Assembly (NCBI GenBank): GCA_046294625.1
Contig: JBKBKN010000020.1
Span: forward strand, 1 to 64,000
Direction of reading: 5' to 3'
From: Flavobacteriales bacterium
Lineage (GTDB): Bacteria; Bacteroidota; Bacteroidia; M30B66
DNA: 64,000 bases
The position numbers were made by a program, and so were the translations under genes. Each line of letters begins with the position of its first letter. Position 1 is the first letter of the stretch. Shown here in pieces: positions 52,907 through 63,589 of the stretch. Below the pieces are notes generated by a model. It was not told where the DNA came from, ran no database searches, and saw nothing but the letters and a program-made list of their open reading frames with translations.

Positions 52907-55900
52907 TTGAACTTTTCTTATCAAATGGCGAATCAAAAAAACTTTCAGGTTTACAAGGCATCGGCAGGCTCGGGCAAAACTTCGCGAATGGTGCAGGAAT
53001 ATCTGATACTTGCCTTAGGAAATGAGAATCCGGCTTATTTTAAAAAGATATTAGGCATTACTTTTACTAACAAAGCTGCCAATGAGCTGAAAGAAAGAAT
53101 TGTGCATACGCTGCAATCTATATGCGAACTACCGGTAGCAGAATTTCAAAACAAATACTTTATCAAACCTTTGCTTGATGAGCTTAATATCAGTGCCACA
53201 GAATTGAAAAAAAGAGCAGAGGCAACTTTGAAAATTATGCTCCACCAGTATTCGGAGCTCTCTGTCGGCACCATCGACAGTTTTATGCATCGATTGGTAA
53301 GAGCTTTTTCAAGAGATTTGAATTTGCCCATGAATTTTCAGGTAGAATTGGATGCCGATTTACTGCTCAATGAAGCCATCGAAAGCTTGATCGCTCAAGT
53401 GGGCATTGATGAAAAAATTACTACCAACCTTCGAGATTTTATTATTGAAAGACTTGATGATGAAAGAAGTTTTAGAGTAGAAGACGAGATAAAAAACATG
53501 GCCAAACAGCTCTTCAGTGATGAGAGCATCGAATATGTTAGAAAACTGGAACACATCACAGCGGCAGAGTTTGACAATGCAAGAAAACAGTTAAAAGGCC
53601 AAACCAGAATATTTGAAAATGAAGTGAAGCGCCTTCGCGATGCAATGATGGAAATTTTGAATAAACATGGTTTGGAGGTTGAAGACTTCGCTTATGGAAA
53701 TAGTGGAATAGGGGGATTCATTAATAAGTGTTATGACAAACTTACTTCGGAAGGTATGCTCATTCCAGGTAAAAGAGTACTTGAAGCACCCCAAACTCCG
53801 TTTTGGACTTCCGCAAAGCAGGAGCAACAAATAGTCGAAAAAGCTGTAAAAGCCAGAGATGAAATACTTCCTTATTTGCTGGAGTTACTCGATTTACTCG
53901 ATGAGCCTCAAGGAAAGTATATCATTCAATCGATGATTTTGAATCAGCTTCATGCTTTGTCCTTACTTAATGATCTCCGCCAGATTCTTTCCGACATCAG
54001 AAAAGAATCAGGGCGGGTGCATATTTCTGAATTTAATAAAAGGGTTCTCCATATAGTTGCCACGGAAACTGTTCCTTTCATATATGAACGTCTGGGTGAA
54101 AGATATAATCACATACTTATCGATGAGTTTCAGGATACTTCGGTGGCGCAATGGCACAATCTCATGCCTTTAATTGAAAATGCCATTTCTAAAGGATTTA
54201 AAAGCATGATTGTAGGCGATGGCAAGCAAGCCATTTACCGATGGCGAGGTGGATTTGCCGAACAGTTTACTGCGCTACCGGAGATGCAACCCCACTCAAA
54301 CGATGAAATAGTTATTGAGCGATTTGCGCAATTGCAGTTTGCCTACGAACAGCAACAATTAGTGACTAACAGGCGGAGTTGCAAAGAAATCGTAGAATTT
54401 AACAATCGATTTTTCAAAAAACTCAGTCAAGAAACGCAATATACCGAAGCACTCCGTTCCATTTATGAAGACATTGCTCAGGAAGCTGTTCAGGAAAAGC
54501 AGGGTGGACTGGTCAGAATTGAATATTTGCCCTATAAATCTGGTCATCGGGAAGAATTCAGAGCTTTAATATTTGAGAAAACGATTTCACTCATTCGCGA
54601 TTTAATCATAGAACAGAACTATGAATATAAAGACATTGCTTTATTAACACGTGGTAATCGCGATGCAAGTGAATTGGCTGCATGGCTATTGGAAAATGAA
54701 ATTCCTGTAATTTCCTCAGAAGCATTGCTCATCAACAATTCACCTGATGTCCAATTCTTATTGGCATGGCTAGATAGTGTTCGCCATCCTGAGAAGCATT
54801 CACCGATTATTGTTATTTTGAATTACCTCGAACAGAAAAAAATTATTGACCAAGCTAAAGGTAAAACTGAATTTTTTAAGTCAATTTTCAATCTAGAGCT
54901 GCTCTTAAGCTTCCTGCGTTCACATCAGATAAAATTGGACAAAATAGAGCTCAGCAGTTTGACCATGTTTGAACTTTGTCATTTGCTTTGCCGAAGTTTT
55001 AATATTTCCACTTCCGACAACGCTTTTGTAAGATTTTTTCTTGAGCACATCTGGCAAAGGACAATTAAAGATGGCAATGATGTAGCCACCTTTATGTCCT
55101 GGTGGGAAGAGAAAAAATCAAGTCTCTCCATTATTACCCCATCAGACGCCAATGCAGTAAAAATCATGACCATTCACAAAAGTAAGGGACTTCAATTTCC
55201 GGTGGTCATTATTCCATTTGGCATTGAAACCCAATCAAAAGCTAGTCTGATATGGCTTGATGCTGCTATGGAAACCGATGGAATTCTACCCGTGGCTTTG
55301 ACCAAATTGAATGCCGGGCTAAATTACACCAGATTTGCAGAACTTTATCAGAAGGAGTTGAATAGAAGATTACAGGATGCTGCTAACCTTCTCTATGTGG
55401 CATTTACCAGACCCGAAGACGCATTATTTGTATTTACTTCTAACGGCAGGAAAGACAATGTTTGGGAGCCTATGCTCCATTTAATCCCTGAAGAAAAGCC
55501 GGAAAAAGAAAAGGAAGTTATTTATCATATTGGAGCTAAACAGGTAAAAGGACGTTCAGTAAATGCAAAAGCTATTATTCAAAAAGATGGTTTGTTTAGC
55601 CAGCTTCCGCATGTTTTTGCCAATTCATGGCGAAATCGATTAAGCTTGAGCACCGATACTTCAAAGCTTTATTTTATTCATGAAGGTTCTAGCGCTCAAT
55701 CTAACGGTAATTTGATTCATGCTATATTAGAAGAAATCAAGCATGAAAACGATTTAGTTAAAGTGCTTCATTCGTTTGAAGAAAAAGGATTGATTTCGGT
55801 TGCGCAAAAACCTGTTATGCAAGATTATATCACGCAAATTTTTGCCCATCCTGATTTGAAAAATGCTTTTCATAGAGAAACTGAGGTTAAGAATGAACAA

Positions 55901-56119
55901 ACCATTGTTTTCCCTGATGGAACAATAAGACGACCAGATCGAATTGTTAAAATTGGTCAGATTTGGAAAGTAATTGACTTCAAAACCGGCCTGAAACGAC
56001 CTGAACATGAGAAGCAAGTTAGGGAATATCAAAAGGCGTTGATTCAGATGACAGGAGCTACAGTTCAAGCTTATTTGGTATATGTGGGAGCTAATCTGGA
56101 AGTAGTCTCGCTAAATTAA
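52907..56119 (+). CDS. UvrD/REP-type SF1 helicase fused to C-terminal PD-(D/E)XK (RecB-family) nuclease; AddA/RecB-like
   Basis: Walker A ASAGSGKT, motif Ia TFTNKAANE, and DEFQDTS (motif II, the DExQD-like box). The C-terminal RecB-nuclease signature is PDRIVKIG...WKVIDFKTG (hhDYKT-like) with an upstream acidic residue. 1070 aa. Confidence 0.7.
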   Translation: MNFSYQMANQKNFQVYKASAGSGKTSRMVQEYLILALGNENPAYFKKILGITFTNKAANELKERIVHTLQSICELPVAEFQNKYFIKPLLDELNISATELKKRAEATLKIMLHQYSELSVGTIDSFMHRLVRAFSRDLNLPMNFQVELDADLLLNEAIESLIAQVGIDEKITTNLRDFIIERLDDERSFRVEDEIKNMAKQLFSDESIEYVRKLEHITAAEFDNARKQLKGQTRIFENEVKRLRDAMMEILNKHGLEVEDFAYGNSGIGGFINKCYDKLTSEGMLIPGKRVLEAPQTPFWTSAKQEQQIVEKAVKARDEILPYLLELLDLLDEPQGKYIIQSMILNQLHALSLLNDLRQILSDIRKESGRVHISEFNKRVLHIVATETVPFIYERLGERYNHILIDEFQDTSVAQWHNLMPLIENAISKGFKSMIVGDGKQAIYRWRGGFAEQFTALPEMQPHSNDEIVIERFAQLQFAYEQQQLVTNRRSCKEIVEFNNRFFKKLSQETQYTEALRSIYEDIAQEAVQEKQGGLVRIEYLPYKSGHREEFRALIFEKTISLIRDLIIEQNYEYKDIALLTRGNRDASELAAWLLENEIPVISSEALLINNSPDVQFLLAWLDSVRHPEKHSPIIVILNYLEQKKIIDQAKGKTEFFKSIFNLELLLSFLRSHQIKLDKIELSSLTMFELCHLLCRSFNISTSDNAFVRFFLEHIWQRTIKDGNDVATFMSWWEEKKSSLSIITPSDANAVKIMTIHKSKGLQFPVVIIPFGIETQSKASLIWLDAAMETDGILPVALTKLNAGLNYTRFAELYQKELNRRLQDAANLLYVAFTRPEDALFVFTSNGRKDNVWEPMLHLIPEEKPEKEKEVIYHIGAKQVKGRSVNAKAIIQKDGLFSQLPHVFANSWRNRLSLSTDTSKLYFIHEGSSAQSNGNLIHAILEEIKHENDLVKVLHSFEEKGLISVAQKPVMQDYITQIFAHPDLKNAFHRETEVKNEQTIVFPDGTIRRPDRIVKIGQIWKVIDFKTGLKRPEHEKQVREYQKALIQMTGATVQAYLVYVGANLEVVSLN

Positions 56120-56215: not shown

Positions 56216-56289
56216 TGGCGAGGTAGCTCAGATGGTTAGAGCGCAGGATTCATAACCCTGAGGTCACGGGTTCAACTCCCGTCCTCGCT
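56216..56289 (+). tRNA. tRNA with CAT anticodon (tRNA-Met elongator, or tRNA-Ile2 if lysidinylated)
   Basis: Manual cloverleaf: acceptor GGCGAGG/CCTCGCT (G1-U72 wobble), D-arm GCTC-AGATGGTTA-GAGC, anticodon arm CAGGA-TTCATAA-CCCTG, T-arm ACGGG-TTCAACT-CCCGT, discriminator A. No encoded CCA. Followed by a T-run. Confidence 0.85.
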
Positions 56290-56385
56290 ACTTTTTTCTT
56301 CAATATCCGATTTATTTTCACAGCTTTCTTTTAGCATCTATTTCCCTGTTAGCTTTGCAATGTCATTTGCCCAACAACAGCATAA

Positions 56386-58410
56386 ATGGTTTTAGTATTT
56401 CAAACATTTCTGGCAGGAACAACAATTCCACCCTTAATCACGCAGATAAGCACAATTTTCGGTTTGGCAATTATTGTTTTATTGGTTTGTAATCGATTTA
56501 AAATTCCTACATTATTAGGTTTTTTAATCACAGGTGTGATTGCAGGGCCTGACTTCATTGGGCTGCTAAGCGCAGGCGATGATGTGAATCTATTTGCAGA
56601 AATTGGAATTATATTACTCCTGTTTACGATTGGGATTGAATTTTCGCTTAAAGACCTGATCAAAGCAAGAAGGCAGGTGCTTCAAGGTGGTACGTTACAG
56701 GTTTTTCTTACCATTATTATCGTTAGCATTTTAGGGGTGTTTCTAAAAATGCCGCTGCGAGAGTCTATTTTTCTGGGAATGTTATTTTCATTGAGCTCTA
56801 CCGCTATTGTTCTAAAATTGCTTCAGGATGGTGGTCGCTTGTCGAGTCCGGAAGGAAAAAGCACCATGTCTATCCTCATTTACCAGGATATTATTGTAGT
56901 GCCGATGATGTTGATTGTGCCTTATCTCGGCGGCGAGGCACAGGGATTTGACTGGGGTATCATTACCATGATTTTAAAAGGTATTATCACCGTAATTATC
57001 GTTATCATTCTATCTCGTGTAGTTATGCCGAAATTGCTTTTCGAGGTAGCTAAAAGTAAATCAAGTGAACTATTTCTACTTACGATTATAGTGGTATGTT
57101 TATCCGTGGCATGGTTAACTGCATTGATTGGATTATCTTTCTCACTTGGGGCCTTTCTTGCCGGTTTGATCATTTCTGAATCTGAGTATAGCCACGAAGC
57201 ATTTAGTACCATATTACCTTTCAGGGAAGTATTTACTTCTTTCTTTTTTATCTCCATTGGTCTATTGGTGGATATTGACTATATCGTTCATCACCCTTTC
57301 AAAATTGTAGCCATCACGTTAGCCGTTTTGATTGTTAAAGCATTGCTCACCACATTGGCTGTAGCAAGTTTAGGTAACACCCTGAGAGTAGCTTTATTGT
57401 CCGGTTTATTTTTATGTCAGGTTGGAGAGTTCTCATTCATATTGGCAGGTACAGGATTGATGTTTGATATTTTGGATAGAAATATTTATCAGCTTTTTTT
57501 ATCTGTTTCCATTCTTTCGATGGCGATCACACCAAACATGATCGTAGGCTCAGATCAAATTTCGCGTTGGCTTGGTCAGCGCCTAAAAACCAATAAACTA
57601 AGCAAACGATTTCAAAAAATTATTGAAGGCAAAGCGGCACAAAAGCCAAAGGAAAAAAATCTAAAAGATCACTTAATCATCATTGGAGTGGGAGAGACCG
57701 GTAAAAATCTAACCAAAGCCGCTCGAATGGCTGGTATTAAAGTGCTGGGAATAGACAATGATCCGGAAGTGGTGCTGGCTGCGCAAAGCAAACGTTTGGA
57801 TGTAATGTATGGCAATTCAGCCAACAGAATCCTTCTTGAACATGCTAATGTGCAGCAGGCTAGAGCTGTAGCCATCACTCATACGGAGTTAAACGATGTT
57901 TTGGCAACCATTAGGATGATTAGGAAAATGAATCCTGCAGTGTATGTCATTTCAAAGGCAAAACGTGTAAAAGATATGGCGGCACTGTATGATGCCGGTG
58001 CTGATGAAGTGGTGAGCGAAATTTTCGAAACATCTGTTGAAGTAATTACGCGAGTGCTTACGCACTACCTGGTGGGGAGAAATGAAATTGATGATTTTAT
58101 TGTGAAACTTCGAAATGTTAATTATGACATGATGCGCTCTATTCGCTATGAGCAGCGTGGATTACAGGATTATCGATTAGAGATTTCTGATACTGAAATC
58201 ATTACCATCAAAGTAAAAATGGGCTCTATGTTGATAGGGAAGAAACTAAACGAACTGCAGCTTCGAAATCTTTTTGGTGTTTCTATTCTGGCCATCAAAC
58301 GCGATGATGAAATTTCTCCTAATCCAGAGGGAGACTACATAATTCAAGAAAATGATATTCTCGTAATCTTTGGAACACATGAAGCAATCGACCGATTCTC
58401 TAGAATGTAG
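56386..58410 (+). CDS. CPA2-family monovalent cation:proton antiporter (KefB/KefC-like) with C-terminal RCK/TrkA-N and TrkA-C domains
   Basis: 12-13 TM helices with Kef-like motifs. Rossmann motif IIIGVGETGKNL (TrkA-N) and a C-terminal TrkA-C domain (ILAIKRDDEISPNP...DILVIFG). Confidence 0.8.
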   Translation: MVLVFQTFLAGTTIPPLITQISTIFGLAIIVLLVCNRFKIPTLLGFLITGVIAGPDFIGLLSAGDDVNLFAEIGIILLLFTIGIEFSLKDLIKARRQVLQGGTLQVFLTIIIVSILGVFLKMPLRESIFLGMLFSLSSTAIVLKLLQDGGRLSSPEGKSTMSILIYQDIIVVPMMLIVPYLGGEAQGFDWGIITMILKGIITVIIVIILSRVVMPKLLFEVAKSKSSELFLLTIIVVCLSVAWLTALIGLSFSLGAFLAGLIISESEYSHEAFSTILPFREVFTSFFFISIGLLVDIDYIVHHPFKIVAITLAVLIVKALLTTLAVASLGNTLRVALLSGLFLCQVGEFSFILAGTGLMFDILDRNIYQLFLSVSILSMAITPNMIVGSDQISRWLGQRLKTNKLSKRFQKIIEGKAAQKPKEKNLKDHLIIIGVGETGKNLTKAARMAGIKVLGIDNDPEVVLAAQSKRLDVMYGNSANRILLEHANVQQARAVAITHTELNDVLATIRMIRKMNPAVYVISKAKRVKDMAALYDAGADEVVSEIFETSVEVITRVLTHYLVGRNEIDDFIVKLRNVNYDMMRSIRYEQRGLQDYRLEISDTEIITIKVKMGSMLIGKKLNELQLRNLFGVSILAIKRDDEISPNPEGDYIIQENDILVIFGTHEAIDRFSRM

Positions 58411-58479: not shown

Positions 58480-58971
58480 TCAGATTTTACGATTAAATTC
58501 TTCCATCTTCTCATTCAGAATTTTGTAATCCAACTTGACCTGATTTTCTTTTAGATGCTCCATCACCGCCAAAGATTTATTGATTCTGCTTTGCACATTT
58601 TTAACCTTACCAATCATGTATAGGAGGCTTCTTTTCTTCCCTGCTGTGAGTTGATGAAAAAGCTGACTGCCAATTTCATCCTGCTGCATCACTTCTTCAA
58701 ATTCTTCAGGCATTTACATTCCGTATTCAATCTCGTCTTTAATTAAAGTAACATGAAATTGATCCAATAAATTCAAGTTTAGTTTGAGTCTAACTTCCTT
58801 ACTCATCATAATGAAGTAGCCATCTGAAGAAGGCATCAGAGCGCTATGCATGGTGTGCTAATGGTTTATGGTGCACAACACTCTTCGCTGCTTATCATGC
58901 ATAATTTGCATAGAAATTTCATCAGGAACAAGGAAGCGATAGCTTCCAAGACTTTCGTCAAATTTCTCCAA
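58480..58971 (-). pseudogene. YdeI/OmpD-associated (DUF1905-type) family gene interrupted by two in-frame stop codons
   Basis: A single minus-strand frame reads (TTG)EKFDESLGSYRFLVPDEISMQIMHDKQRRVLCTINH-TAG-HTMHSALMPSSDGYFIMMSKEVRLKLNLNLLDQFHVTLIKDEIEYGM-TAA-MPEEFEEV...KKRSLLYMIGKVKNVQSRINKSLAVMEHLKEN. The parts on either side of both stops (TAG at 58858-58860, TAA at 58714-58716) co-align with the YdeI family layout. There is no in-frame ATG at the 5' end. Confidence 0.55.
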
Positions 58972-58993
58972 CCGTGCTGTAAAACTTATTATG

Positions 58994-60325
58994 CTAATTG
59001 TTCTTGGGATTTAACATATCCCTTAACCAATCTCCTAAAAGGTTGAATGAGGTGACGGTCAAAAATATGGCTAGCCCTGGAAATATCACAAGCCACCAGG
59101 CATCAAACTGCTGTCGCCCGGAACTCAAAACAGAACCCCATGTAGAAACATCGTCTGGCACTCCAATACCCAAAAAGGAAAGACCAGATTCAAGCAAAAT
59201 AGCTGCAGCTACACTAAAAGCAATCTCGATCATCACAGGTGCAAATGCATTGGGCAAGGCATGCTTAAAAATTACTCCCCATTCTGAAATCCCTAAAGAC
59301 TTTGCCGCTTCTACGTATTCAAGCCTGCTTTGACGCATCATTTCCGCTCTAGTAAAACGGGCTATACCTGTCCAACTTGTCAATCCAATGATAGCAATAA
59401 CCAATCCCAGACTCTTATCTTTAAAAACCGCAGCAATAGTGATGATTATCAGAATGCGTGGAAGAGAATTCATAATCTCTATCAACCTGCTCACAATAGC
59501 ATCCACAGGGACATTTGTTTTGCGTTTTAGAAATGGAATAAAATGAAACAGTCTGCCCGATAGCATAAACAAAGCGAGAATGGCTATAAATACAGTAATG
59601 CTTAAAAGAAGATTGAAAATAGCACTACTATAACCTTCTTCGAAGCTTAAACTAAGTGAGGCAGAGCGAAAAATAAATGCATAGAAAATTGCGGGAAATA
59701 GTCCTAAAACACCGAAGTAATATGCTGATCTTGAAATTCGAAAACCGAAGTTTCCAAAATATCCGGCTAGGGCACCAAGCATAATTCCAATAGATGATGC
59801 AATGAATATGGATATAAGCCCCACTTGTAATGCCAATCTACTTCCGTGGATCAATGTAGCCAGAAGATCATTACCTACTTGATCAGTACCTAAATGATGT
59901 CTAAAGCGAAAGCTTGATTCAACTATTTGCCCGTTAGGCAATTTCATTTTCTGTAAATCTCCCGGTGAAACATAATCTCTGTTTAATTTATCGGGTTTTC
60001 CGGGCGAATAGGGGATCGGTGCAAATAGGATAAAATCCGTTTCTAGCGTTTTCCATTCCACTAAATCAAATTGTAAAATTTCTATGGCGCCTGTTTGCGG
60101 ATCAATAATAGAGTCGGTTCTCGTAGGGTTAATAATGTGAGAGACTGCCGGATAATATGAATGTCCTTTGTACTTAACATACAAGGGCTGATCTGTAGCA
60201 ATCAAATCGGCAAACAAGGCTAGAAAAAATATGTTGCCAATTACGATTAATGCAAAAATAACCTGTTTGCTGCTTTTCATCTTGGTGAGCCATTGACGTT
60301 GCTGATGGATTACAGGCGCTTTCAT
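58994..60325 (-). CDS. ABC transporter permease, OppC/DppC-like
   Basis: N-terminal TM helix, a ~130-aa periplasmic insert, then a 5-TM core with the EAA-like loop (LEYVEAAKSLGISEWGVIFKHALPNA). Confidence 0.75.
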   Translation of the reverse strand: MKAPVIHQQRQWLTKMKSSKQVIFALIVIGNIFFLALFADLIATDQPLYVKYKGHSYYPAVSHIINPTRTDSIIDPQTGAIEILQFDLVEWKTLETDFILFAPIPYSPGKPDKLNRDYVSPGDLQKMKLPNGQIVESSFRFRHHLGTDQVGNDLLATLIHGSRLALQVGLISIFIASSIGIMLGALAGYFGNFGFRISRSAYYFGVLGLFPAIFYAFIFRSASLSLSFEEGYSSAIFNLLLSITVFIAILALFMLSGRLFHFIPFLKRKTNVPVDAIVSRLIEIMNSLPRILIIITIAAVFKDKSLGLVIAIIGLTSWTGIARFTRAEMMRQSRLEYVEAAKSLGISEWGVIFKHALPNAFAPVMIEIAFSVAAAILLESGLSFLGIGVPDDVSTWGSVLSSGRQQFDAWWLVIFPGLAIFLTVTSFNLLGDWLRDMLNPKNN

Positions 60326-61800
60326 TTATTTCCTCCAAGATTAATTCGCGGGTCGGCTGCTTTATATAACAAATCGGATATGAAGTAGCCGATAATGGTT
60401 AACAAACCAAATATGGTAAATACTGCAACTATCATAGGATAATCATAGTTTTGTATTGACTCATATATTTCTAGTCCCATTCCCGGTATTGAGAAGATGG
60501 TTTCAATTATAACAGAACCGCCAAAAGCAACAGGAAAAATACTAGCAAAAATAGTGATGATGGGTAATAGTGCATTTCTGAAAGCATGCTTAAGCAAAAC
60601 TTTCTTTTCACTTAAACCTTTTGCCCTAGCAGTGCGGATGAAATCTTGTTTCATTACATCAGCAATACTTCCGCGCATTTGACGGCTTATAAATGCAAAG
60701 GATGCATAGGTATAGGTTATTACAGGCAAAACTAGATAAGGAGCATAATGGGAAATACGTTTAAAAAAAGACCAATTTGGGTCAAACTCAGAAGGATCTT
60801 TAACACCAGATTCGGGAAACCAGTCAAAAAAATCGGGATTTGCAAATACTACAAGAAGCAAGGTGCCAACAAAAAAGCCTGGCAAAGAATATAGAGCGAA
60901 GAGAAGTACTCCGGTAATTTTATCGAAAAAACTATTGGCCTTATATCCGGCATAGAGTCCCACTGGTATGCTCACTAGATAGGCAATGAGAATAGATATT
61001 ACGGCTAAAATCAGAGACCATTTCATTTTTTGTCCGATACGATCACTGATTCTCTGACCATCTCTAAATGAAATACCAAAATCACCCTGTATAATCCCAT
61101 TTGATGTGCTTCCATTGCCAAACATCCAATAGTGATATTGATTTTGCAAGCCAAACCATGATATTACCGGAACAAATGCCTTCCATATTTTTTGCTCATT
61201 GATTATGATATGGATGTTTTCTTTGACACTTGACACCAATTCCGGCTTCCAATCTATTGGGAGTTGATCGAGTAATAGATTGAGTGTATCGCATTTGGAT
61301 TGAAAAAAGCCAAAACTTCCTTTCCCAAACAATTTTGCTGAAGCTACTTCAATTTTGGTGATGAGCTCTTGATCGATGCTCTTATAGGATATTGTACTGT
61401 TTTGGATATGCCCTTCTTTTTTTAGCACTTCAGCCAATCGTTCTGTATCCTTGTGTAAAGCATAAACTTCATCCGGCCTTCCTGAAACTCTTGCTAAATA
61501 AAGTAGCGTCTTCCGCTTCTGATTGTCAGTGATGGCATGTATTTCCCTATTTTCAGCCAACGTCCCAAAGCCTATGTAAAATAACGGTAAGTCAAGACCC
61601 ATTTTTCGGATGATATCTCGCTTCATTTCCTCCCTGTCACCTCCCATTGCACTGGCTTCTCCACTAGTATTTTCAGCAACAGAAAGCAATCTGTCAACAG
61701 GATCGCCGGGGGCATTTGCACTGATTACAAAAGCCAGCAAGGAGATTACCACTAGTGTGGGAATCATAATCAATAGCCTTTTGGCGATGTAACTTAGCAT
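60322..61800 (-). CDS. ABC transporter permease, OppB/DppB-like with large periplasmic insertion
   Basis: TM1, then a ~200-aa extracytoplasmic region, then a 5-TM core with the EAA loop (DFIRTARAKGLSEKKVLLKHAFRNALLP). 4-nt overlap with the downstream permease. Confidence 0.75.
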   Translation of the reverse strand: MLSYIAKRLLIMIPTLVVISLLAFVISANAPGDPVDRLLSVAENTSGEASAMGGDREEMKRDIIRKMGLDLPLFYIGFGTLAENREIHAITDNQKRKTLLYLARVSGRPDEVYALHKDTERLAEVLKKEGHIQNSTISYKSIDQELITKIEVASAKLFGKGSFGFFQSKCDTLNLLLDQLPIDWKPELVSSVKENIHIIINEQKIWKAFVPVISWFGLQNQYHYWMFGNGSTSNGIIQGDFGISFRDGQRISDRIGQKMKWSLILAVISILIAYLVSIPVGLYAGYKANSFFDKITGVLLFALYSLPGFFVGTLLLVVFANPDFFDWFPESGVKDPSEFDPNWSFFKRISHYAPYLVLPVITYTYASFAFISRQMRGSIADVMKQDFIRTARAKGLSEKKVLLKHAFRNALLPIITIFASIFPVAFGGSVIIETIFSIPGMGLEIYESIQNYDYPMIVAVFTIFGLLTIIGYFISDLLYKAADPRINLGGNK

Positions 61801-61807
61801 GGTTTAA

Positions 61808-63589
61808 TTAGAAGTGATCAGGATTGCGAAGATAATTTTCTTTTAGCTTAAGATTGTTAAGAATTATATGAGGTTTTTCATTGTAAAACTCTATGTTTTC
61901 AAACCTTTTGTGAACAGCAACTTTTTTTGTTGCGTTAAATATAAAAACGTAAGGCTGTTCTTCATATACAATTTCTTGAAGCTGATGCATAATCATTTTG
62001 CGTTTCTCCGGATCTAAGGTCACATTAGATAATTCTATCAAAGAGTCAGATACGGAATTGCCGAAACCAACAAAGTTAGCGCCCTTTGATGTCCAGGAGC
62101 TAGAGTGCCAAATTTGACGTGCATCTTCAGGTCCGGCACTCGACGACCATGAGCCTAACATCGCATCAAAGTCCTGAGCAAACGCTTTTTGGTAAAAAAC
62201 TGAAAAATCCATCGGGTTTGGAATAACATTGATACCTGCCTTATACATGGTTTCTTTCACCATGAGTCCAATCTCTTTGGTAACAGGTGATATCATGTAA
62301 TTAAGCGTAAAAGAAAAAGGTACTTTTTTACCATTGATAACTTTATCACGAATGTTATCTCCATCCGTATCTATCCAGCCCGCTTCGTCTAATAGTTTTT
62401 TTGCTTTTGCAATGTCAAGCTGTATCAAAGGAAGATTATGATTATAATCATCTTGCATAGGTAGAATAAAACTTGCCATTCTGTTTGCTTTGCCCTTAGC
62501 CATCACTTCGATAATTTCTTCTACCGGTGTGAGATGAGCTATGGCCCTTCTTACCCGCTTATCTGTGAAAAATGGCATTCGACTCGATGCCGGCTTCATA
62601 TTCATGCCTAAATATGCATAAGTAAACGAACCCACATAATCAGAAGCGTAGTTTTCATTAAAGTATTTTAGTTTCTGGAGTTTGATCATAGCTGGTGTTG
62701 TCAGCTCTGTAGTTATATCAATTTGTTCTTTTTTCAAAGCCAACACAACCGGCTCCATGTCTTTGATAATTTTGAAAATGATCTTATCAGGGAATTGTTG
62801 ATCATATACACTCGTGCTGTTTGCACCCCACCAATTTTTCTTTCTTTCAAGAATTAAACTGCTACCGGTAGACCATTCTGTAATTCTATAAGGACCCAAA
62901 CCAACCAATTGCGAAGGTAAACGTGCATTATCAACCTTGTTGAATCCTTGAACGATAGTAAATAACTGTTTGTGTTTATCGCTTTCGAAGTTTTTATCAA
63001 AATCGTCAATACGGTATTTTCTGAAGACTTTTTCTGGATCCCAGAAGCGTTCCTGTAGAACATGAATTTCTGTCAGCATTCTGAGATTGGCGAAATATAA
63101 CTTTCGCATTTCTATGCTGAATTTTAGGGAGTCATCATCGTAAAGTCGAATATTCTTGATGTTTTCAAAAATTGGCTTTGAAGTGGGGTTATTTGTAAAG
63201 GGGCATTTAATCATTTTAAGCGTAAAAGCCACATCTTTGGCGGTGCAAGCTGTACCATCGTCCCATTTAATTCCTTCTTTTAGTCGGAAATGGTAAGTGA
63301 GTGAATCTGCGGACATTTCCGGTAAATCAACCAATAAATCGGGGATAATTTCAAAATTTCTGATGTCGGTCATCAGAAGCCTTTTTTGGGTCAGACTGAA
63401 TATGATTCTTTGATAAATATTATTGTCGTTCGTGGGGTGTAATCCTAAGGGCTCAGCCAGAAAATGCATGATAATGGTGTTCTGAGACAAATCCCGCTTT
63501 TTTACACATGATACCCCTATGAACATTATTAAAATAGGGATTAGAAGCTTTTGGCGCGTTTTCATTTTAACGAAGTAAACGTACATCAA
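61808..63589 (-). CDS. ABC transporter substrate-binding lipoprotein, family 5 (peptide/nickel, OppA-like)
   Basis: Lipobox FIGVSCVKK. ~590 aa with cluster-C SBP size and pattern. It is the first gene of the SBP-permease-permease operon. Confidence 0.7.
   Translation of the reverse strand: MMYVYFVKMKTRQKLLIPILIMFIGVSCVKKRDLSQNTIIMHFLAEPLGLHPTNDNNIYQRIIFSLTQKRLLMTDIRNFEIIPDLLVDLPEMSADSLTYHFRLKEGIKWDDGTACTAKDVAFTLKMIKCPFTNNPTSKPIFENIKNIRLYDDDSLKFSIEMRKLYFANLRMLTEIHVLQERFWDPEKVFRKYRIDDFDKNFESDKHKQLFTIVQGFNKVDNARLPSQLVGLGPYRITEWSTGSSLILERKKNWWGANSTSVYDQQFPDKIIFKIIKDMEPVVLALKKEQIDITTELTTPAMIKLQKLKYFNENYASDYVGSFTYAYLGMNMKPASSRMPFFTDKRVRRAIAHLTPVEEIIEVMAKGKANRMASFILPMQDDYNHNLPLIQLDIAKAKKLLDEAGWIDTDGDNIRDKVINGKKVPFSFTLNYMISPVTKEIGLMVKETMYKAGINVIPNPMDFSVFYQKAFAQDFDAMLGSWSSSAGPEDARQIWHSSSWTSKGANFVGFGNSVSDSLIELSNVTLDPEKRKMIMHQLQEIVYEEQPYVFIFNATKKVAVHKRFENIEFYNEKPHIILNNLKLKENYLRNPDHF

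Follow-up and report, generated by a model that had tools for sequence, protein, structure and literature searches.

Positions 58480-58992 on the reverse strand of the window, the 64,000-nucleotide stretch of Flavobacteriales DNA analysed here, hold what is very probably a genuine, ordinary pseudogene, left from a gene for a two-domain DUF1905 + OmdA protein. Its disabling lesions are derived, its sequence records past constraint, and relatives dispense with the gene. The lesions are presumably fixed in the population, and none of the remaining fragments is likely to be functional. The gene, its annotated remnant and the two flanking genes lie as follows:

58480..58992, reverse strand: whole ydeI-like pseudogene (DUF1905 + OmdA), 170 codons plus TGA, without an indel relative to the intact orthologue
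58480..58713, reverse strand: 77-aa open reading frame (ORF) annotated as MFN4123613.1, 'YdeI/OmpD-associated family protein', a C-terminal OmdA-domain remnant
58994..60325, reverse strand: OppC-like ABC permease, 443 aa, MFN4123615.1, intact, ending in TAG; upstream flank, 90% identical to its orthologue
56386..58410, forward strand: Na+/H+ exchanger with TrkA domains, 674 aa, intact, ending in TAG; downstream convergent flank, 97% identical to its orthologue

Positions 58480-58971 (reverse strand) can be translated in one frame of 164 codons, which closes with TGA at 58480-58482 and is interrupted by TAG at codon 38 (58858-58860) and by TAA at codon 86 (58714-58716). In the ORF listing, this TTG-based frame is split into three fragments, one of 37 aa that starts with the TTG and two others of 45 and 77 aa. 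The original prediction, made from the DNA letters and their ORFs, was of one frame broken only by these two stops and free of indels, and both the translation and the orthologue DNA alignment bear this out. The three segments, on whose co-alignment that prediction had been made to depend, align gaplessly to single intact proteins. Its choice of start does not stand: TTG 58971, proposed as the first of ~165 codons, encodes a Leu inside the gene, for which the orthologue uses CTG, and the orthologue's ATG lies seven codons upstream, aligned with ATA at 58990-58992. With this ATG as guide, the gene occupies 171 codons or 513 bp including the stop (58480-58992). An in-frame ATG had correctly been reported missing, and the orthologue alignment gives the reason, namely that the start codon was mutated from ATG to ATA.

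The proposed YdeI/DUF1905 identity was likewise right. The 163-residue stop-masked translation matches Pfam DUF1905 (PF08922) with 29 bits over residues 9-76, spanning the TAG, and Pfam OmdA (PF13376) with 27.1 bits over residues 86-143, the gathering scores being 24 bits and 25.6 bits, respectively. The 77-aa ORF alone scores 27.6 bits against OmdA, above the 25.6 cut-off; this match and the ORF positions agree with the earlier view that the annotated protein is just the last fragment. A search of 5.8 billion proteins with the stop-masked translation returned 13 full-length homologues, each with both domains, the best of which (P0001) has 83% identity (E 9e-72); the sole OmdA-only match (P0014) sits on a 560-bp contig. 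Judged by these sequence comparisons, the homology of the three fragments to intact family proteins is far beyond chance. An NCBIfam search of the translation gave no match, and searches of the PDB by sequence, with single-protein and family-profile queries, gave no meaningful match. An AlphaFold model (pLDDT 90.5) shows a DUF1905 beta-barrel at the N-terminus and a five-helix OmdA domain at the C-terminus, with the TAG located between two strands of the barrel and the TAA in the inter-domain linker, before the five-helix domain. The ancestral product would have been a cytoplasmic protein composed of these two domains.

The intact orthologue P0001 is encoded on six contigs of Logan assemblies, and three of these, from three separate runs (L001-L003), were compared with the window. 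Their gene order is the same as that of the window (SBP_bac_5, two ABC permeases, ydeI, convergent Na+/H+ exchanger with TrkA domains), their DNA is about 83-85% identical to it, and the alignment contains no indel inside ydeI. On L001, the gene caller had started P0001 at an internal TTG, giving 150 aa; the real ATG is 20 codons upstream (region L001:4907-4966), 1 nt after the permease stop, and the resulting 170 aa fit the family N-terminus. Against this orthologue, three disabling lesions are evident:

58990..58992, reverse strand: lesion 1, ATA for the orthologue's ATG start (G>A), 1 nt past the TAG stop of the permease
58858..58860, reverse strand: lesion 2, TAG at codon 45, where the orthologue has CAG for Gln (C>T)
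58714..58716, reverse strand: lesion 3, TAA at codon 93, CCA (Pro) in L001 and in two more distant relatives, L168 and L170 (adjacent CC>TA)

The orthologue begins, 1 nt after the permease TAG, with ATG ATT AAT TTC ACA GCA AGG CTG GAG, and the corresponding codons in the window are ATA ATA AGT TTT ACA GCA CGG TTG GAG. Methionine occupies the start column in L001, L168, L170 and 75% of 152 homologues. Loss of the start is a probable lesion, with the proviso that translation might in principle still begin at the TTG seven codons further downstream. The presence of CCA (Pro) at the TAA column in L168 and L170 implies that this codon is ancestral and, therefore, that two adjacent changes were needed to produce the TAA. 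All four base changes behind the three lesions run from G/C to A/T. The gene, to which the window copy is homologous over its full length, is intact in L001, L168 and L170, and comparison with orthologues and outgroups alike marks the disabling lesions as derived. It had been anticipated that relatives would carry an intact Trp, Gln or Glu codon at the two stop sites; sense codons are indeed found at both, and the expected residues were right for the TAG (Gln) and wrong for the TAA (Pro). Family members have one uninterrupted ORF of ~170 aa with a start codon, which the window gene lacks, having ATA for ATG and an in-frame TAG and TAA; it belongs to the two-domain DUF1905 + OmdA proteins by descent only, that is, as a pseudogene.

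Further damage is visible at the most conserved positions of the protein. In an alignment of 152 family members obtained from genome and metagenome contig scans, 42 columns are conserved at a level of at least 85%. At these columns the window copy has four private mismatches and L001 has none, a difference that is small on its own (sign test ~0.06); the two sequences also have four conservative departures in common. The private replacements are:

58945..58947, reverse strand: Gly16 (GGA), W16G; Trp in 86% of the 152 homologues and in the orthologue
58729..58731, reverse strand: Ile88 (ATT), S88I; Ser in 96% of the homologues and in the orthologue
58537..58539, reverse strand: Val152 (GTC), G152V; Gly in all 152 homologues and in the orthologue; inside the 77-aa ORF
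58501..58503, reverse strand: Glu164 (GAA), K164E; Lys in 97% of the homologues and in the orthologue; inside the 77-aa ORF

They are spread over all three fragments, two of them in the 77-aa ORF, and with the three lesions counted in, the damaging private changes number seven in the window and zero in L001. In the comparison with L001, the dN/dS of the gene (Nei-Gojobori) is 0.066, from a dN of 0.099 and a saturated dS of ~1.5. This ratio, which is dominated by the earlier, constrained period, lies within the range of 0.017-0.083 given by the intact flanking genes (substrate-binding protein 0.030, permease 1 0.083, OppC 0.054, Na+/H+ exchanger 0.017), and the gene was therefore functional during most of the divergence.

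The length of the unconstrained period was estimated with a substitution model (transition/transversion ratio 2) in which 17.9% of changes are non-synonymous in conserved columns, 4.0% create stops and 0.6% affect the start codon. On this basis, the four conserved-column changes correspond to ~20 neutral substitutions, or ~0.04 per site since inactivation, which suggests a neutral period amounting to between a few per cent and ~10% of the branch that leads to L001, the nearest known relative. The same ~20 substitutions predict about one stop, two being observed. They also predict one to a few indels, and the absence of any is a mild tension that, in view of the uncertainty, falls short of significance. 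It can be resolved if inactivation began with one of the radical replacements, in which case the neutral period was shorter. The description of the pseudogenization as 'very recent' thus needs qualifying: decay came late on the scale of the divergence, in keeping with the dN/dS of 0.066, but it is not brand new, because the TAA takes two base changes from CCA, and four private replacements are present in addition. As for closer relatives, scans of genomes and metagenome contigs gave nothing above 51% identity, the GTDB representatives not including the window's own genome, and a protein search with OppC found no sequence between 90% and 100% identity.

Graded relatives were instead found with the adjacent permease as query, and OppC identities were measured on the alignment:

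L001: OppC 90% identical to the window; ydeI intact
L165: OppC 81% identical to the window and 81% to L001; ydeI absent, with the same two flanking genes ~165 bp apart
L166/L167: OppC 75% identical; ydeI absent, with a biotin carboxylase gene after OppC
L168: OppC 71% identical; ydeI intact (171 aa), directly behind the permease
L170: OppC 70% identical; ydeI intact (172 aa), directly behind the permease

The absence of ydeI from L165, L166 and L167 indicates repeated loss, and the existence of a sister lineage (L165) with the same flanks and no ydeI shows that this clade can do without the gene. Neither tblastn nor blastn detected a ydeI remnant in the L165 spacer (L165:2079-2250, Logan SRR27730027), which contains only chance 7-11-mers; L165 represents a complete deletion, independent of the point-mutated copy in the window. 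Within one clade, the locus is thus found intact (L001, L168 and L170), point-mutated (the window's metagenome-assembled genome, MAG) and fully deleted (L165), a small, clean example of stepwise loss.

The gene sits directly after an Opp-like operon (58994-63589, reverse strand) that encodes a substrate-binding protein and two permeases; no ABC ATPase gene separates the permeases from the convergent gene that comes next. The arrangement of ydeI behind OppC, with a spacing of 1-4 nt, is common to L001, L168 and L170; of the more distant homologues, 126 had sufficient sequence on the upstream side, and an OppC-like gene directly upstream was found in none of these. A functional link to the ABC transporter was considered and set aside, since an adjacency that is clade-specific says little about function. 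A 66-aa ORF on the forward strand (58846-59046) overlaps, in antisense orientation, the pseudogene at its 5' end and the permease gene at its 3' end and was also called by the Logan gene caller in L004, a second assembly of the locus. It has no Pfam match, and the same frame in L001 has a stop seven codons before its end. It is probably MFN4123614.1, the accession between those of the two neighbours, and probably a spurious shadow ORF. A tRNA-Met gene (CAT; 56217-56291, forward strand), the only tRNA gene in the 64 kb, lies between a 1070-aa ORF (52907-56119) and the Na+/H+ exchanger gene. General genome decay was also rejected for the window: long ORFs cover 86% of it, a normal coding density, small intact ORFs occur in the larger gaps, and ydeI was the only obviously broken gene seen.

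Three other explanations were weighed against an ordinary pseudogene. Gene fission would leave the DUF1905 half dead and the 77-aa ORF (58480-58713) as a functional stand-alone OmdA-domain protein, perhaps expressed through termination-reinitiation. The architecture lends itself to this, as the TAA falls at the inter-domain linker and is followed immediately by an ATG (ATG-TAA-ATG), and the ORF, which is annotated as a protein and has this ATG as its start, covers all five C-terminal helices of the model (pLDDT 90.5) and passes the OmdA cut-off by itself. If true, a nonsense mutation at a domain boundary would represent domain fission caught in the act and not simple decay. Yet two of the private replacements, neither present in the orthologue, fall inside this very ORF, at a residue that is Gly in 152 of 152 homologues (G152V) and at one that is Lys in 97% of them (K164E); upstream translation, on which reinitiation would depend, is crippled by the loss of the start and by the TAG; and both domains are found together in 13 of 13 full-length homologues, the one OmdA-only match being that on the 560-bp contig. 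We regard fission as very unlikely. An artefact of sequencing, assembly or consensus calling, behind which the real gene would be intact, has to be considered since the window comes from a MAG contig, deposited at NCBI under 'Flavobacteriales bacterium'. L004 (Logan assembly, SRR31360865) is 100% identical to the window over 6786 bp, with all lesions included, but may stem from the same reads as the MAG, which likewise leaves some room for an unfixed polymorphism. On the other hand, two assemblers agree completely, and an artefact would need four base errors at three disabling sites as well as four radical missense errors, all within 513 bp, amid 6.8 kb of flanks that are clean and under strong constraint. 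Indels, the usual type of long-read error, are missing, and all four lesion-making changes run from GC to AT, the normal direction of bacterial mutation. An artefact is accordingly judged more improbable still.

In the least credible account, the full-length protein is still made, be it by read-through of the stops, by means of a suppressor tRNA or by local recoding. In its favour, the frame is kept over 171 codons and the TAG is followed by C, a context reported to terminate weakly in E. coli. However, two different stops, UAG and UAA, would both have to be passed, UAA read-through is very rare, and the start codon is lost as well. The stops are not conserved, every relative having sense codons at both sites, and the private changes at invariant residues, some of them downstream of the stops, may point to relaxed constraint. 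No suppressor tRNA gene is present in the 64-kb window, in which tRNA-Met stands alone, a count that is not informative genome-wide. Moreover, TAA (25) and TAG (9) together terminate 34 of 45 long ORFs in the window, both neighbours of ydeI included, the other 11 ending in TGA. An alternative genetic code is ruled out for the window by the same usage and by the TAG ends of both flanking genes, and its exclusion in the original prediction was sound.

An ordinary pseudogene being the preferred reading, its history probably ran as follows. Ancestrally in this Flavobacteriales clade, the gene would have come immediately after the final permease gene of an operon for an Opp-like ABC transporter, and selection on it would later have been lost in the window's lineage. 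GC-to-AT point mutations would then have destroyed the start codon (ATG>ATA) and introduced two stops into the frame (CAG>TAG and CCA>TAA), and four radical replacements would have struck near-invariant residues, with no indels so far. A full-length product would now be impossible, and short fragments at most would be translated. The pseudogene opens no new biological question; the main value of the finding lies in annotation hygiene, in that MFN4123613.1 (77 aa) is to be flagged as a fragment of a pseudogene spanning 58480-58992.

The annotated name calls for similar caution. Salmonella YdeI/OmdA, the OmpD-associated polymyxin-resistance protein, is the source of the Pfam family name. That protein is periplasmic and belongs to the bacterial OB-fold (BOF) family as a homologue of YgiW and SipA (PMC6370654). 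Only the name, as used in Pfam and NCBI labels, is common to it and the window family. The folds differ, a BOF OB-fold in the Salmonella protein as against a DUF1905 barrel plus five helices in the model of the window family, and there are no BOF structures among the 50 fold matches listed for the model. By inspection, the N-terminus of the window protein (MINFTARLEKFD...) is hydrophilic and lacks a hydrophobic signal segment. Because the fold is different, the name says nothing about function; the 'YdeI/OmpD-associated' label is misleading and empty of functional information, and the function of the Salmonella protein should not be transferred.

A closer structural counterpart is PG0164 of Porphyromonas gingivalis (PDB 2d9r), a solved DUF1905 domain with which the N-terminal domain of the window gene product has its fold in common (Foldseek of the model domain, TM 0.73 normalised to the target, r.m.s.d. 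2.2 Å over 76 columns, probability 0.99, with a weak E-value of 0.36). PG0164 differs in consisting of one domain of 85 residues, with no helical OmdA domain following at the C-terminus, and its sequence is 12% identical to that of the window protein. Intact Bacteroidota DUF1905 + OmdA proteins of ~170 aa, exemplified by P0001 (the L001 orthologue), L168, L170 and homologues in Saprospiraceae, Roseivirga and Cyclobacteriaceae, match the window gene in both architecture and length, the nearest with 83% identity; in comparison with them, the window copy has no start codon, two premature stops and four near-invariant residues replaced. Finally, set beside ordinary bacterial pseudogenes, which arise by point nonsense mutation with later deletion, the window gene is slightly peculiar in having no indel yet, but nothing essential differs: its GC-to-AT disabling substitutions, its dispensability and the deletion of the gene in a sister lineage are all features that it has in common with them.
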